From the NCBI GenBank assembly GCA_001778235.1, contig MFGJ01000007.1, positions 264,331-328,330 on the forward strand: DNA of 64,000 nt. Reading direction: 5' to 3'. The notes under the pieces were generated by a model, which saw nothing but the letters and a program-made list of their open reading frames with translations, was not told the DNA's origin and did not search any database. The position numbers and the translations under genes are program-made. Of the stretch, positions 4,440 to 63,725 are shown piece after piece (the first letter of the stretch is position 1; each line of letters starts with the position of its first letter). The DNA comes from Candidatus Falkowbacteria bacterium RIFOXYC2_FULL_36_12. GTDB lineage: Bacteria > Patescibacteriota > Patescibacteriia > UBA11705.

Positions 4440-4930
4440 TTATCCACAGAATTTTGTTGTAGTATTTTTGGTTAGTAAAATTATTGTTTCAGCAAAGCTG
4501 TTACTTTTTGACATCCTGCCTACCCTGCCTACCCTGCCTACCGGCAGGCAGGTGGCAGGCAGGCCCCGAGGCTTACCGTGTTCGTGGGGTTGTTGTATTG
4601 CTAAAGTAAGTTTTTTGAGATTGTGTGATTCTTTCGCTTTGCGAGCTACTTTTGACACCAAAAGTAGCCAAAAGTGCTGGGGGGATTCAATGCGAATTGC
4701 ATTGTTCATCCCTAGTGCATTGATTACCCGCAGAATCCCCCCAGACCCCTATGCTTGGCATATTTGTGGGATTTGATATTAAAGTTAGTGATTGGTTTTG
4801 CTAAAGCACGCCCCAGACCTGCCTTCATCAAGATTACGGCAGGCAAGCCCCGAGGAATATCATTCTTGATATTTTTGGATTTGGAGATTTGGCATAAGTG
4901 AATGGGCACAAGTTTTTTAAAAAACAAAAA
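4440..4930. repeat. about 500-bp non-coding region dense in perfect hairpins and dispersed-repeat copies
   Basis: (cctaccctg)x3 followed by ggcaggcagg. A 10-bp stem gctacttttg/caaaagtagc. A 10-bp stem ggggggattc/gaatcccccc enclosing aatgc-gaatt-gcatt. A 41-bp family-A element at 4811-4851. The track ORFs here are low-complexity and repeat-encoded. Confidence 0.6.
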
Positions 4931-10986: not shown

Positions 10987-10989
10987 ATA

Positions 10990-11062
10990 TTAAGCGAGAT
11001 AAGCGAGAACAGCGAGGTCAGCGAGTAAAGCGAGTACAGCGAGGTCAGCGAGTAAAGTAATA
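10990..11062. repeat. 9-bp tandem array (NNNAGCGAG, 8 units)
   Basis: Units taagcgag ataagcgag aacagcgag gtcagcgag taaagcgag tacagcgag gtcagcgag. The array begins about 4 nt upstream of the 10986 start codon. Confidence 0.85.
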
Positions 11063-40640: not shown

Positions 40641-41516
40641 TTACTTAATTATCCTCCTGATAATATCATTATATTCCTCCTCTGAATAAAAATTTATAAT
40701 AATTTGACCTTTGCCAGCTTTTTTTCTAACATCGACTCGAGTGGATAAAGCTTCTCGGAGTTGCTCCTTGATTGATTCGGTTTCAGGGTCAAATGAACGC
40801 CTGTGACCGGTCTTATTGCGGAGTTGTCTACTCTGCTTTTCAGCATCTCGAACCGTGAAATTGTAATTTGAAATCTGCTCTAAAAATCGAAGCTGTTCTT
40901 CTTCGGAATCAAAACCTGCAATCACTCTAGCATGGCCTTCGGTAATTTTCTTGTCAATCAAAGCCTTCTGGACCGCTTCTGGCAGAGATAAAACCCTAAC
41001 CATATTGGCGATAGTTGATCTTGACTTGCCTACTTTATCAGCCACATCTTCTTGTGTCAAATTAAATTCATTTATCAATTTTTCATAAGCCAGAGCTTCT
41101 TCAATTGGATTCAAGTTGGACCGTTGGATATTTTCAATCAAGGCTAATTCTAATTTTTCTAATTCATCAGCCTCACGGACTATACAGGGGACGGTTTTTA
41201 ATTCAAGAATCTTGGCTGAACGCAACCGCCTTTCACCAGCAATCAGCTCAAACTGGTTGTCTTTTTTTGTAACAACCAAGGGCTGAATAATACCATATCG
41301 TTTGATAGAATTTATTAATTCTTCTAATTGTTCATGGTCAAAAGTTTGACGAGGTTGCATTGGGTTTAAATCAATTTGCCCAACAGGAATATTTAAAATT
41401 CTGTCAGAGTCCTCGACTAAGAATTCTTTGTGCTCATGTGAGACAGCTTCTTCGGCAACTTTTCGATTTGGGATAAGAGATCCTAAACCTCGACCTAAAC
41501 CACTCATTTTTGACAT
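40641..41516 (-). CDS. parB: chromosome partitioning protein ParB
   Basis: ParB box LIAGERRLRSAK plus an HTH. It lies adjacent to parA. Confidence 0.85.
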   Translation of the reverse strand: MSKMSGLGRGLGSLIPNRKVAEEAVSHEHKEFLVEDSDRILNIPVGQIDLNPMQPRQTFDHEQLEELINSIKRYGIIQPLVVTKKDNQFELIAGERRLRSAKILELKTVPCIVREADELEKLELALIENIQRSNLNPIEEALAYEKLINEFNLTQEDVADKVGKSRSTIANMVRVLSLPEAVQKALIDKKITEGHARVIAGFDSEEEQLRFLEQISNYNFTVRDAEKQSRQLRNKTGHRRSFDPETESIKEQLREALSTRVDVRKKAGKGQIIINFYSEEEYNDIIRRIIK

Positions 41517-41534
41517 AACTATTTTTTTAATATT

Positions 41535-42311
41535 TTATATTTCTTTTTGTAAAAAAATTTCAATTACTTCACGGGCTAGCTTGCTATAAGCTTTGGCGCC
41601 TTTTGAACTAGGATCGTACTTGGAAATCGGCATTCCATGACTAGGAGCTTCAGATAACCTGACATTACGAGGAACAATGGAACGAAAAATTTTATCTGGG
41701 AAATATTTGTATAATTCCTCCATTACTTGACCAGAAAGTTTTGTACGCTTATCAAACATAGTAATAATTGCGCCCAATATATTTAATTCTGGTTTGATAT
41801 TATCTCTTACCAACCCAATAGTATTAATTAACTGACTCAAACCTTCAAGCGCATAGTATTCGGCTTGAACAGGAATTAAAATATGATCAGCTGCGACTAA
41901 CCCATTGATAGTCAAAATGCCAAGAGATGGCGGACAATCAATTAAAATGATATCATAATCAGCTTTTACCTCAAGTAAAGCATCACTTAGCCTAAATTCC
42001 CGTCTAGCAATGTCAACTAGTTCAATATTGGCACCAGCCAAAGATGGTGTGGCAGGTGCAACTCGATAACCATGAATTCCTGTTGGCATAACAATTTCCC
42101 GAACCAAGTGAGTACCGATCAATGCTTGATAAATACCCTTATCTAAATCAGTATAATTTACGCCAAGACCAGAAGAAGCATTCGCCTGTGGATCAAGGTC
42201 AACCAAAAGTACAAATTTACCATGTTCAGCCAAATATGCCCCCAAATTTACAGCTGTGGTGGTTTTACCAACTCCGCCTTTTTGATTAACAATACTAATA
42301 ATTTCAGCCAT
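41535..42311 (-). CDS. parA: chromosome partitioning ATPase ParA
   Basis: Deviant Walker A NQKGGVGKTTTAVNLG. Confidence 0.9.
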   Translation of the reverse strand: MAEIISIVNQKGGVGKTTTAVNLGAYLAEHGKFVLLVDLDPQANASSGLGVNYTDLDKGIYQALIGTHLVREIVMPTGIHGYRVAPATPSLAGANIELVDIARREFRLSDALLEVKADYDIILIDCPPSLGILTINGLVAADHILIPVQAEYYALEGLSQLINTIGLVRDNIKPELNILGAIITMFDKRTKLSGQVMEELYKYFPDKIFRSIVPRNVRLSEAPSHGMPISKYDPSSKGAKAYSKLAREVIEIFLQKEI

Positions 42312-42530
42312 AAATTTGAATGACTTGTTTATAATTTATTCTGTTATAATTATACATAAAGATGCAACTTTTGACAATATTGATTTTTTGTATTATAATC
42401 CAATTGTTTTTAGCGTAATTTAGAGAATTGTCGATGATGCCGAGGTGACTGATTACTCTTCATCAAAACAAGCGGAGGTTTGGCTGTAGATTGAATTACT
42501 ATTGCTATACCTTATTTACAATTGATTTAA

Positions 42531-42722
42531 GCCGAAGTGCCCGCCTACGCAGGTGGCTACGGCGGACAGGGCGGTAATTAGTAGAGAGATTTAACTTTCT
42601 ACCAGTTCCGCCACATTTACAATCATGCCGAAGTGCCCGCCTACGCAGGTGGCTACGGCGGACAGGGCGGTAATTAGTAGGGAGATTTAACTTTCTACCA
42701 GTTCCGCCACATTTACAATCAT
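42531..42722 (+). repeat. two 96-bp tandem direct repeats derived from the 5' part of the adjacent tRNA-Leu
   Basis: Each unit starts with gccgaagtg, which equals tRNA-Leu nt 1-9. Each unit contains ctaccagttccgccac, the reverse complement of tRNA-Leu nt 7-21, and ends acatttacaatcat. The units differ by 1 nt (gtagag vs gtaggg). The third unit is the tRNA itself. Confidence 0.85.
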
Positions 42723-42809
42723 GCCGAAGTGGCGGAACTGGTAGACGCGCTGGACTCAAAATCCAGTGGTGGCAACATCGTGAGAGTTCGAGTCTCTCCT
42801 TCGGCACCA
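42723..42809 (+). tRNA. tRNA-Leu (anticodon CAA), CCA encoded
   Basis: Hand fold: acceptor GCCGAAG/CTTCGGC. Anticodon stem CTGGA/TCCAG with loop CTCAAAA. Long variable arm. T-arm GAGAG-TTCGAGT-CTCTC. Discriminator A followed by CCA. Confidence 0.85.
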
Positions 42810-46304: not shown

Positions 46305-46321
46305 AAGTTTTGATTAATTAA

Positions 46322-46350
46322 TTCTTGACGAATTGTTTTTGATATGATAA
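46322..46350 (+). promoter_or_regulatory. sigma-70-type promoter (TTGACG-17-TAATAT)
   Basis: Read directly from the sequence. It drives the hairpin RNA below. Confidence 0.5.
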
Positions 46351-46356
46351 TATATT

Positions 46357-46462
46357 TTTGTTGAAAGTTCAATGGTAGGTTTCCTGGTGGCTGGCGGTAT
46401 GAGGAATCCCCCCCAGGAGTGCAGTAGTCAACGATGATCTACTGCCAGCCACCTTTTTTTCA
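46357..46462 (+). ncRNA. about 100-nt candidate sRNA: a long hairpin with a terminator
   Basis: ggtggctggc...gccagccacc is a perfect 10-bp stem enclosing a C-rich internal loop (aatcccccccaggagtgcagtag), followed by ttttttt. The region is GC-rich relative to its AT-rich surroundings. Confidence 0.3.
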
Positions 46463-46487
46463 ACAAACTAATTTATGTTATAATACT

Positions 46488-46791
46488 GAAGTTCCCAGAC
46501 GGTGGCCAACGGCCATGCTACCTGATGGGACGACTGCCCTCTAGCGTTCTGGCCAAATTGCTAAAGGGCGACCATCCCCCCATTCCCGTTGTCCTGGGTG
46601 CGCTGACTGAAGATCTTCCCCTGCTTTCAGGAAGAGGCTGAAGTAGCGTAGCCCCTTAACCTTAACCTGCCACCAGAAAGCTAGCTCTGTGTAGTGTGAG
46701 CTCCACTCCAGAGCGAATCAACCGAGCTCAAACCGCCGGATGCCTAAACGCACCTGGCTGCCCATCGCGATTCACGATCGTGATGGGCATT
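46488..46791 (+). ncRNA. about 300-nt GC-rich structured RNA candidate, unidentified
   Basis: Preceded by a -10 tataat at about 46476. It ends with hairpin gcccatcgcgat-tcac-gatcgtgatgggc followed by ttttt at about 46786. There is no ORF. The GC content is far above the genome background. It matches none of the RNase P, tmRNA or SRP consensus blocks I checked by eye. Confidence 0.35.
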
Positions 46792-46806
46792 TTTTATTAT
46801 AGACAA

Positions 46807-47715
46807 TTATTTTTCCCATTGATAATTATTAAAAACCCAATCAGCCAAAACCTTGGTATCTTGAAATCGAGAATCAATTGTATTACTATTTAATACTACA
46901 AAAATAACTGGCTTATTTTCATGAGTAATCTCAACAGCCAAACAATAACCAGCTTCTGGCAGATAACCGGTTTTACCACCAATTAATTCATAACCATAGA
47001 TCTGACTATTTAAAAAACTGTCAATAAGAATATCTGTGCTGGTAATCTGACGGTTATTTTTTTTATTTAAAATATCAATTTCATATTTTGGCTGAATTAC
47101 TGTTTCCCGAATTTGGTTTTTCTGCAAAGCAAGATAAATTAATCTAGCAATATCTGAAGCGGTTGAAACATTGCCAGCTGAAAGACCGGTAGGATCGCTA
47201 AAATCAGTATTGTACAAACCTAATTCTTCGGCTTTATAATTCATCAGTTCAGTAAATTCCAAATTGGATAAACCAAGAGCTCGAACCAGGGCCATAATTG
47301 AATTATTATCCGAACTGATCAGAGCTGATTTCCACAAATCAATAAACTTCACCTGTTCTCCACGATAAATATGCGGATAAGCTCCGACTGTTTCATCAGA
47401 GGACATGAGTGTCACTTGTTTTTGCCAATCTGGATTTAAATCCAAAATAACCAAAGCAGTCATAATCTTTGTTATGCTGGCAATTGGTTGTTCCTCATTT
47501 GCATGTCTGCCGGCTAGGACTTTACCACTAGCAACATCGACGACTAAATATTTATTGGCAGTAATCTCTACACCAATGTTTTCAGGATTAATTCTCGCGG
47601 GCGTTGATACGACTGATTGATTTTCGGCAAGTGAAAGAAACTCTGTATTTTCTACAGAGTAAACATTATTTACAGAATGAATTAAGAGTAAACTAAGGAT
47701 TATATTGAGAAACAT
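46807..47715 (-). CDS. dacA: D-alanyl-D-alanine carboxypeptidase (S11, PBP5-like)
   Basis: Signal peptide, then SITK (SxxK), SDN and KTG motifs. Confidence 0.8.
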   Translation of the reverse strand: MFLNIILSLLLIHSVNNVYSVENTEFLSLAENQSVVSTPARINPENIGVEITANKYLVVDVASGKVLAGRHANEEQPIASITKIMTALVILDLNPDWQKQVTLMSSDETVGAYPHIYRGEQVKFIDLWKSALISSDNNSIMALVRALGLSNLEFTELMNYKAEELGLYNTDFSDPTGLSAGNVSTASDIARLIYLALQKNQIRETVIQPKYEIDILNKKNNRQITSTDILIDSFLNSQIYGYELIGGKTGYLPEAGYCLAVEITHENKPVIFVVLNSNTIDSRFQDTKVLADWVFNNYQWEK

Positions 47716-47835
47716 AGAGGTAACATGGGTTAAAATGGTTAAATGGGATGTTTGAGCTTGAAGGGATTATCAAGAATTATTACTTATATTCAGGTCTTAT
47801 TTTCCCTTAAAATATGCACAATATCTCACCACCTC

Positions 47836-47864
47836 TTGACAACAAATGGCACATGTGATATAAT
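47836..47864 (+). promoter_or_regulatory. consensus sigma-70 promoter TTGACA-17-TATAAT
   Basis: TTGACA at 47836-47841, a 17-nt spacer, and TATAAT at 47859-47864. Confidence 0.6.
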
Positions 47865-47870
47865 GTAATA

Positions 47871-48072
47871 GTTAAATGAGTTTTCTTTGGGTTCGCCCAG
47901 AGAAAAGGGTTCGAAGCTAGGTCCGACTAATTCGGATAGGGAGAGTAATCTCCTAAAGATCCTAGTGGAGGCGTCCCTGACCGCAAGGTCAAAAAACAGC
48001 AGAGGCACGGTAAACAACCCGTGTCACTACCCCCAGAACGTGTTCGCATGTTCTGGGGGTCTTATTTTTTTA
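47871..48072 (+). ncRNA. about 200-nt structured ncRNA candidate (6S- or SRP-like size), unidentified
   Basis: Hairpins cuuuggg-UUCG-cccagag, uccga-cuaau-ucgga, ggag-aguaau-cucc and gacc-GCAA-gguc. Terminator cccccagaacgtgttcgcatgttctggggg followed by ttattttttt. No ORF. Confidence 0.45.
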
Positions 48073-48634
48073 GTTCTTGTACTTCTTCGGCTTGTCTGTT
48101 GTCTAAAAACTGCTCCAGATTTTCCACAACATGAAGTTTTTCATAATCAGGAAGTTCCTTGACTGAAACAATTCCTAGATATTTTAAAAATTCTGGAGTA
48201 ACACTAAAAAACAATTCAGGTTCTTCACCATCGGCCTGAACTAAACCACGGATTAACAAATTTCTTAAAATTAAACTGCAATTTACTCCTCGAATTTGTT
48301 CAATCACTGGCTTTGAGACTGGCCCGCGGTAAGCGATAATGGTCAAGGTCTCGAGTGAAGGCTGGGTTAATTCTCCGCTTCTATCGTCTTTTAAAAATTG
48401 TTTAATTAAATCAGAATTGTCAGCTGAAGTTGTAAACTGGTATTGGCCTTCGCTTTCAATCAGGACTATTCCCCTACTGGATTCGGAATATTCAACAAAC
48501 AGATTTTTTAATTCTTGTTCAACTGTTTCAAATTTTAATTCTGGTTGGGATTTTTTTAAAACATTAAAAATCGATCTTGAAGCAAGAGGCTTGATTGAAG
48601 CAAATAATAAACTTTCAATTTGAGAACGCAACAT
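48062..48634 (-). CDS. scpB: segregation and condensation protein B
   Basis: Winged-helix N-terminus IESLLFASIKPLASRSIFNVL. Adjacent to scpA. Confidence 0.8.
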   Translation of the reverse strand: MLRSQIESLLFASIKPLASRSIFNVLKKSQPELKFETVEQELKNLFVEYSESSRGIVLIESEGQYQFTTSADNSDLIKQFLKDDRSGELTQPSLETLTIIAYRGPVSKPVIEQIRGVNCSLILRNLLIRGLVQADGEEPELFFSVTPEFLKYLGIVSVKELPDYEKLHVVENLEQFLDNRQAEEVQELKK

Positions 48635-63458: not shown

Positions 63459-63604
63459 CCCCAGACCTGCCTTCATCAAGATTACGGCAGGCAAGCCCCA
63501 GAGATGTTCATGTTCGATGGTTTAAATATATAGACTTGGTGGTGGTGTTGACGGCAAGAAAGCCCCCAGACCTGCCTTCATCAAGATTACGGCAGGCAAG
63601 CCCC
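63459..63604. repeat. two copies of the 41-bp dispersed element ccccagacctgccttcatcaagattacggcaggcaagcccc
   Basis: Copies at 63459-63499 and 63564-63604. A third identical copy is at 4811-4851. Internal inverted repeat cctgcc/ggcagg. Confidence 0.85.
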
Positions 63605-63725
63605 GATGCTATAAAACTTACTTCCGTGGAAAATGAATCGCAGGCGATTAAATTATTTAGAGATGTGAAGGCTATGGCTTGCAAAATTAAAACCACCAGC
63701 ATTTATGCTGATGGTTTTAATTTGA

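Follow-up and report, generated by a model that had tools for sequence, protein, structure and literature searches.

What does the long spacer between scpB and the D-Ala-D-Ala carboxypeptidase gene of this Falkowbacteria genome encode? Both genes lie on the minus strand of the 64-kb window (the whole stretch of DNA that was analysed), with scpB at 48062-48634 and the carboxypeptidase gene (Peptidase_S11, referred to here as dac) at 46807-47715, and they are separated by a full-length spacer of 346 nt (47716-48061). The ScpB protein is 100% identical to that of Candidatus Falkowbacteria RIFOXYD2_FULL_35_9, a CPR/Patescibacteria groundwater metagenome-assembled genome (MAG). The original prediction placed a structured RNA, of a size and architecture fitting 6S or SRP RNA, in this spacer, transcribed towards scpB; we refer to it as RNA c, and ask in turn how it is built, where it came from and what kind of RNA it may be.

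Promoter, fold and terminator of RNA c

RNA c is a plus-strand unit of about 198 nt, extending from ~47871 to ~48068, in which a promoter, a series of hairpins and a terminator are all present. The sigma-70 promoter (47836-47864, +) matches the consensus at 12 of 12 positions, with TTGACA as its -35 hexamer (47836-47841, +), a 17-nt spacer read directly from the sequence, and TATAAT as its -10 hexamer (47859-47864, +). The perfect promoter of the original prediction is thus confirmed, and it also carries the TG of an extended -10 (47856-47857, +; TGaTATAAT). Transcription probably starts near 47870-47872. There are two such 12/12 promoters in the 64-kb window, compared with 0.17 expected from block shuffles, and the other one (42371, +) is positioned ahead of a tRNA-Leu/Met/Met cluster. 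Because that second promoter drives tRNAs, the pattern fits a genome in which the perfect consensus may be set aside for stable RNAs of high abundance. The GC content of RNA c (0.50, against a window mean of 0.364) is similar to that of the tRNAs.

The surroundings of the tRNA promoter have two features of their own. ParB and ParA genes (40641-42311, -) are just upstream of the promoter and divergent from it, and their presence may mean that the replication origin is nearby. Downstream of the promoter at 42371 is a 96-nt unit present in 2.1 tandem copies (99% identical; 42531-42731, +), which immediately precedes tRNA-Leu(CAA) and continues into it. The unit begins with the first 9 nt of tRNA-Leu, holds the reverse complement of the D-arm region, and has a folding z-score of -5.1.

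The minimum free energy (MFE) of a 205-nt stretch containing RNA c is -86 kcal/mol, compared with -54.8 +/- 4.3 kcal/mol for dinucleotide shuffles (z = -7.25), and none of 200 shuffles folds as well; the feature far exceeds chance expectation. Both the MFE and the centroid structure consist of five local hairpins, and distant segments pair only in a weak AU stem that joins the leader to the terminator tail. The first hairpin, H1 (47881-47906, +), is an 11 bp stem of the form UUUUCUUUGGG-UUCG-CCCAGAGAAAA with a folding energy of -12.9 kcal/mol (z = -4.2), which falls to only -9.1 kcal/mol on the minus strand. It is followed by a central domain (47907-47978, +; -24.8 kcal/mol, versus -17.4 kcal/mol on the minus strand), the 5' part of which, GGGUUCGAA, is tRNA T-loop-like in sequence. 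This domain contains a three-way junction with two hairpins (47916-47966, +), in which the outer helix is GCUAGG/CCUAGU, the hairpins are UCCGA-CUAAU-UCGGA and GGGAGA-GUAA-UCUCCU, with CUAAU and GUAA loops, and the junction strands are UA, AAAGAU and GGAGGCGUCCCU. Taken alone, the central domain is not significantly more stable than its shuffles (z = -1.4).

The 3' half begins with H3 (47979-47990, +), a GNRA-capped mini-hairpin of sequence GACC-GCAA-GGUC (z = -7.2), and an A-rich single-stranded linker, AAAAAACAGCAGA (47991-48003, +), which reads on the minus strand as a U6 tract following the H4 complement. H4 itself (48004-48025, +; -9.5 kcal/mol, z = -3.2) is a 7-bp hairpin with an 8-nt loop, UAAACAAC. 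The last element, H5 with the intrinsic terminator (48029-48071, +; -25 kcal/mol, z = -6.9), has a 14-bp stem closed by a UUCG loop (48029-48060), and ranks among the strongest terminators in the window. The tail that follows H5 at 48060 is CTTATTTTTTT, or, as the terminator tail, CUUAUUUUUUU. The scpB stop codon (TAA, 48062-48064, -) falls within this tail, and the terminator T-run also specifies the last two Lys codons of scpB. The multi-hairpin RNA of about 200 nt with UUCG and GCAA loops, and the strong terminator overlapping the scpB stop, are therefore both as originally described. Two UUCG loops, one GCAA and one GUAA give RNA c an unusual density of hyperstable tetraloops.

Several properties distinguish the two strands. 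The reverse complement folds less well (-67.2 kcal/mol, z = -4.0), and each hairpin is more stable on the plus strand than on the minus strand. Six of the 66 MFE pairs on the plus strand are G·U, which would become A·C mismatches if the minus strand were folded, and the UUCG and GNRA loops are present on the plus strand only. Since the orientation of promoter and terminator agrees with the fold energies, the G·U pairs and the tetraloops, the plus strand is the functional strand of RNA c.

The scpB-dac junction in relatives and within the species

The genomic context of RNA c was compared using ScpB and Dac homologues, 18 contigs and 80 GTDB loci, covering about 85 relatives. The gene order IMPDH-scpA-scpB-Peptidase_S11-Sm_multidrug_ex-GT4 is kept in these relatives, and scpB usually directly adjoins the peptidase gene. 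In the closest contigs (ScpB 58-65% identical) the scpB-dac gap is -4 to +6 nt, it is no more than 40 nt in 56 of the 75 GTDB loci having both genes, and the equivalent gap is -26 to +40 nt in most relatives, compared with 346 nt in this species. RNA c is absent from the scpB-dac junction of all ~85 relatives. The original prediction called for a comparison with relatives; instead of being conserved or structured there, the region is missing altogether.

Where the junction is larger, relatives contain small protein genes, an RluB-like gene, REP-like repeats or an AT-rich spacer, and never a GC-rich hairpin RNA. The closest Dac relative (L103, 69% identity) has a 185-nt AT-rich spacer without a match to the RNA c model. 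Five loci (L024, L027, L031, L032 and L104) carry a small ORF of 65-134 aa, encoding a highly charged product, between scpB and the carboxypeptidase gene, and other relatives have an RluB-like pseudouridine synthase gene at the same position. The scpB-dac junction thus appears to be a recurrent insertion site. The idea that the spacer is a decayed gene was considered and set aside, as it has no similarity to either the relatives' small ORFs or MazG.

Within the species, nine of ten independent assemblies are 100% identical at the locus over the stretches covered, and the apparent differences in L012 are runs of N. The remaining variant is L016 (JGI Ga0208953_1009209, 1266-1257), in which a 28-nt deletion corresponding to window positions 48024-48051 has taken out the 5' arm of the terminator together with its loop. 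This is either a hairpin-related assembly artefact or a natural variant showing that the unit is dispensable. Because the same-species copies lack sequence variation, they offer no covariation to analyse. The absence of the unit from the relatives' junction, together with its near-identity in the same-species assemblies, indicates on comparative grounds that the RNA c unit is a lineage-specific insertion in a single species of groundwater Falkowbacteria.

Searches beyond the junction gave the same picture. No match to RNAs a, b or c (RNAs a and b are the neighbouring units described below) was found by nhmmer in 1.24 Mb around scpB of more than 85 relatives, nor by BLASTN (distant mode) in phage and plasmid collections. 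A covariance model built from RNA c alone recovered only RNA c itself (191.9 bits) from 1.26 Mb of CPR loci; a 19-bit partial match in L044 was rejected, the central domain being missing. Viral contigs gave no match in five pattern scans, exact and R/Y-degenerate. A junction-core pattern had no matches in 596 Gb of species-representative genomes, and a pattern for the T-loop-like segment had four chance matches in JGI metagenomes, with no similarity outside the pattern; neither scan returned the source sequence, and both are weak negatives that tell little about organisms outside these collections. A paralogue of RNA c was not found within the 64-kb window.

We favour, at somewhat better than even confidence, the interpretation that RNA c is a genuine orphan, a lineage-specific and free-standing small-RNA gene. 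In this scenario the perfect extended -10 promoter probably drives strong constitutive transcription from ~47871, the RNA would fold during synthesis into five local hairpins, four of them with very stable UUCG or GNRA caps, and the 14-bp intrinsic terminator would end it near 48068. The resulting compact RNA of ~198 nt would be expected to resist nucleases and to have a long half-life. The whole unit sits on the 346-nt insertion between scpB and the DD-carboxypeptidase gene, and since this insertion splits genes that adjoin in relatives, RNA c is more plausibly a recent acquisition in one Falkowbacteria species than a housekeeping 6S or SRP RNA; a housekeeping role is also unlikely for an RNA restricted to one species. 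With the insertion, hairpins and T/A-runs come to lie between scpB and dac, and the last ~80 nt of RNA c would be antisense to the scpB 3' UTR. From this arrangement we infer that RNA c may act mainly in trans, either by binding protein or by base-pairing through the CUAAU and UAAACAAC loops and the A-rich linker, and that uncoupling of the carboxypeptidase gene from the scpAB operon could be a side effect of the insertion. The expression and stability of RNA c, its partner and any regulatory effect are in this sense all predicted. Counting against a small-RNA gene are the failure to find a homologue, covariation or conservation in the data searched, the z-score of the junction (-1.4), and the deletion in L016.

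As an independent unit of ~200 nt in an intergenic spacer, non-coding and ending in a terminal hairpin with a U-tail, RNA c resembles a generic bacterial sRNA gene; it differs in having no family or conservation beyond one species, and in its unusually perfect promoter and tetraloop density. Several more specialised RNAs were rejected on anatomical grounds. The loops of RNA c lack the GGA motifs of a CsrB-like sponge, a T-box or other riboswitch is argued against by the absence of a downstream gene and of an Rfam match, and RNA c has neither the repeats nor the boxes of a box C/D-like or TIGR array.

The main rival to a free-standing, trans-acting RNA, which we consider a real though minority possibility, is that RNA c is mainly cis-acting, a convergent antisense and terminator module that splits the operon by ending scpAB transcripts, pairing with the scpB 3' UTR or scpB-dac read-through RNA, and resetting dac expression. 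The geometry would fit. In relatives scpB and dac abut and are presumably co-transcribed, and RNA c and scpB converge on a terminator region that they share. On the minus strand, the H4 complement with additional flanking pairs (47990-48030; -14.2 kcal/mol) is followed by GUUUUUU, a terminator-like arrangement ~65 nt past the scpB stop codon that is possibly the intrinsic terminator of scpAB, although it was not picked up by a standard terminator scan. A promoter scan of the spacer found no minus-strand dac promoter matching at least 9 of 12 consensus positions, so any RNA reading through to dac would be fully complementary to RNA c; there is, however, a weaker GATAAT promoter-like site for dac near 47770 (-). 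A further point against a mainly cis function is that a simple antisense or terminator role would require neither a perfect promoter nor a five-hairpin structure rich in hyperstable tetraloops.

There are precedents for such an arrangement. The par(fst) loci have a convergent RNA I/RNA II pair with a shared bidirectional terminator, and GadY, at gadX-gadW, is a cis-encoded antisense sRNA. Like these, RNA c runs towards the upstream gene of an operon junction and overlaps its 3' end, with a terminator region shared by both strands; the terminator overlaps the stop codon, and the transcripts may overlap. Unlike them, RNA c has no toxin ORF (its longest plus-strand ORF is 14 aa) and is far more elaborately structured. 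A type I toxin-antitoxin pair was likewise rejected, as there is no small hydrophobic toxin ORF of ~18-60 aa; the plus-strand ORF has 14 aa, and a 63-aa minus-strand ORF is uncalled and has no homologue in the protein clusters searched.

How the unit arrived bears on a second rival, rather unlikely in our judgement, in which RNA c is neutral or selfish foreign DNA, a recent insert possibly bracketed by GGTCTTATTTT and without a cellular function. This sequence is an exact 11-nt direct repeat (47793-47803 and 48058-48068), and its two copies bracket the whole unit from promoter to terminator. An insertion scar, in the form of a target-site duplication or a microhomology scar, is one possible origin; chance is another, since roughly 0.4-2 exact 11-mers are estimated to occur by chance in the 1.9 kb scanned. 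The repeat would fit a foreign insert, as would the restriction of RNA c to one species, the lack of homologues in the collections searched, the two further GC-rich inserts with promoters and terminators beyond dac, and the terminator deletion in L016. Of the traits of a mobile element (MITE or IS-derived), the direct repeat is the one observed: terminal inverted repeats were not seen, and a second copy of the unit was found neither in the window nor in the collections searched, where phages, plasmids and viral contigs gave no match. The two strands also differ consistently, G·U pairs and UUCG/GNRA loops being confined to the promoter strand, which argues for selection on the RNA.

Neighbouring orphan units and repeats

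Two more GC-rich (0.52-0.61) units lie on the other side of dac, between it and the Sm_multidrug_ex gene (46305-46806, +), each with a terminator and a promoter of the TGnTATAAT type. RNA a (~46352-46460, +) consists of a long hairpin and then U7, and RNA b (~46488-46797, +; -113.5 kcal/mol, z = -3.8) ends in a very strong terminator. Neither is present in relatives, which have MazG or nothing at this position, and no match to either was found in Rfam, in phages or plasmids, or by nhmmer.

It is unusual for a single gene to be flanked by three orphan RNA genes. On this basis it is conceivable, if improbable, that a CPR episymbiont has acquired a new class of abundant, hyperstable RNAs of which RNAs a, b and c are the founders. 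Such RNAs might be lineage-specific parts of ribonucleoproteins, or decoy or effector RNAs in interactions with the host or with phages, and each would be delivered as a self-contained cassette of promoter, RNA and terminator, inserting into operon junctions in antisense orientation.

Repeated elements of other types are also present in intergenic spacers of the window. A REP-like GC-rich hairpin element, CCCCAGACCTGCCTTCATCAAGATTACGGCAGGCAAGCCCC, occurs in at least three copies (~4820-4865, ~63465-63505 and ~63570-63610), and short AGCGAG-based repeat arrays (AGCGAGTAA, AGCGAGAAC and similar) are found at 1235-1330 and 10987-11060.

Coding potential, known RNA families and implications

The only ATG-started ORF inside RNA c on the plus strand, and hence the longest, is 14 aa (MSFLWVRPEKRVRS). 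No ORF is called at the locus in any of the ten same-species assemblies, and a translated search of the plus frame against 1.84 billion protein representatives gave no match.

It is very unlikely that the minus strand is the functional one, with the spacer encoding a 63-aa ORF initiated at TTG (47826-48017, -) or forming a structured 5' leader of the carboxypeptidase mRNA. The small ORFs at the same junction in L024, L027, L031, L032 and L104 offer a parallel, and the minus strand also folds better than its shuffles (z = -4.0). The 63-aa ORF, however, is uncalled in ten of ten assemblies, is unlike the small ORFs of the relatives, gave no match in a search of 5.8 billion protein clusters, and at a GC content of 0.5 is atypical for coding sequence here; all helices are weaker on this strand, and the promoter and terminator are oriented for the other.

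Comparison with structured RNA families leads away from the identity first proposed. At the gathering score and at E <= 1, Rfam 15 matches in the whole window are limited to three tRNAs, no family being assigned to RNA c, and ARAGORN finds the same three tRNAs and no tmRNA. The sub-threshold Rfam matches listed are generic terminator look-alikes. Because RNase P RNAs of CPR bacteria are diverged and needed lowered thresholds for their detection (PMC8172020), Rfam was also scanned at E <= 10 with lax filters, using queries of 501 nt and 207 nt, and gave no match to 6S, SRP, RNase P or tmRNA. This, with the ARAGORN result, argues against RNase P RNA and tmRNA.

Structure separates RNA c from the other two families. 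It shares with 6S RNA (ssrS, RF00013) its length and, given its strong promoter, a plausible abundance and stability, but it has no end-closing stem, central bubble or terminal (apical) stem, no covariance-model match and no conservation near scpB, and it sits on an insertion. Its likeness to SRP RNA (ffs, RF00169/RF01854) is a loose resemblance between strings, AGGUCCG ... GGA.AGG.AG. The segment originally likened to SRP domain IV (aggUCCGa...uCGGAuAGGgAG; 47919-47944) forms a 5-bp stem closed by a CUAAU pentaloop, beside the second hairpin of the three-way junction, and has neither a GNAR tetraloop nor internal loops; helix 8 with its GNAR tetraloop and its symmetric and asymmetric loops is missing, and neither Bacteria_small_SRP nor Bacteria_large_SRP matches at E <= 10. 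The fold thus lacks both the bubble-containing rod of 6S RNA and SRP domain IV, and the 6S or SRP identity originally suggested is not upheld.

A housekeeping RNA is expected to be conserved. That RNA c is nonetheless this bacterium's 6S or SRP (4.5S/ffs) RNA, diverged beyond recognition by Rfam, is extremely improbable: its ~198 nt are of a size fitting 6S, its very strong promoter is as for a stable RNA, and CPR housekeeping RNAs such as RNase P RNA are diverged (PMC8172020), but even the 207-nt query with lax filters found no such family, the fold is one of local hairpins, in which there is neither a long-range closing stem nor a central bubble nor a helix 8 capped by GNAR and carrying internal loops, nothing similar was found in the 1.24 Mb from more than 85 relatives, and the locus is an insertion in a single species. 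RNA c should therefore not be annotated as a 6S or SRP RNA.

As a prediction for a single species, RNA c answers no long-standing question. No member of the Falkowbacteria, a CPR lineage, is known to have been cultured, and there has been almost no work on their RNA biology; if it is transcribed as predicted, RNA c would be among the first candidate regulatory or structural small RNAs in the group. It would also provide a clear case in which a conserved operon junction, that of scpB and dac, has been split by insertion of an antisense RNA gene.
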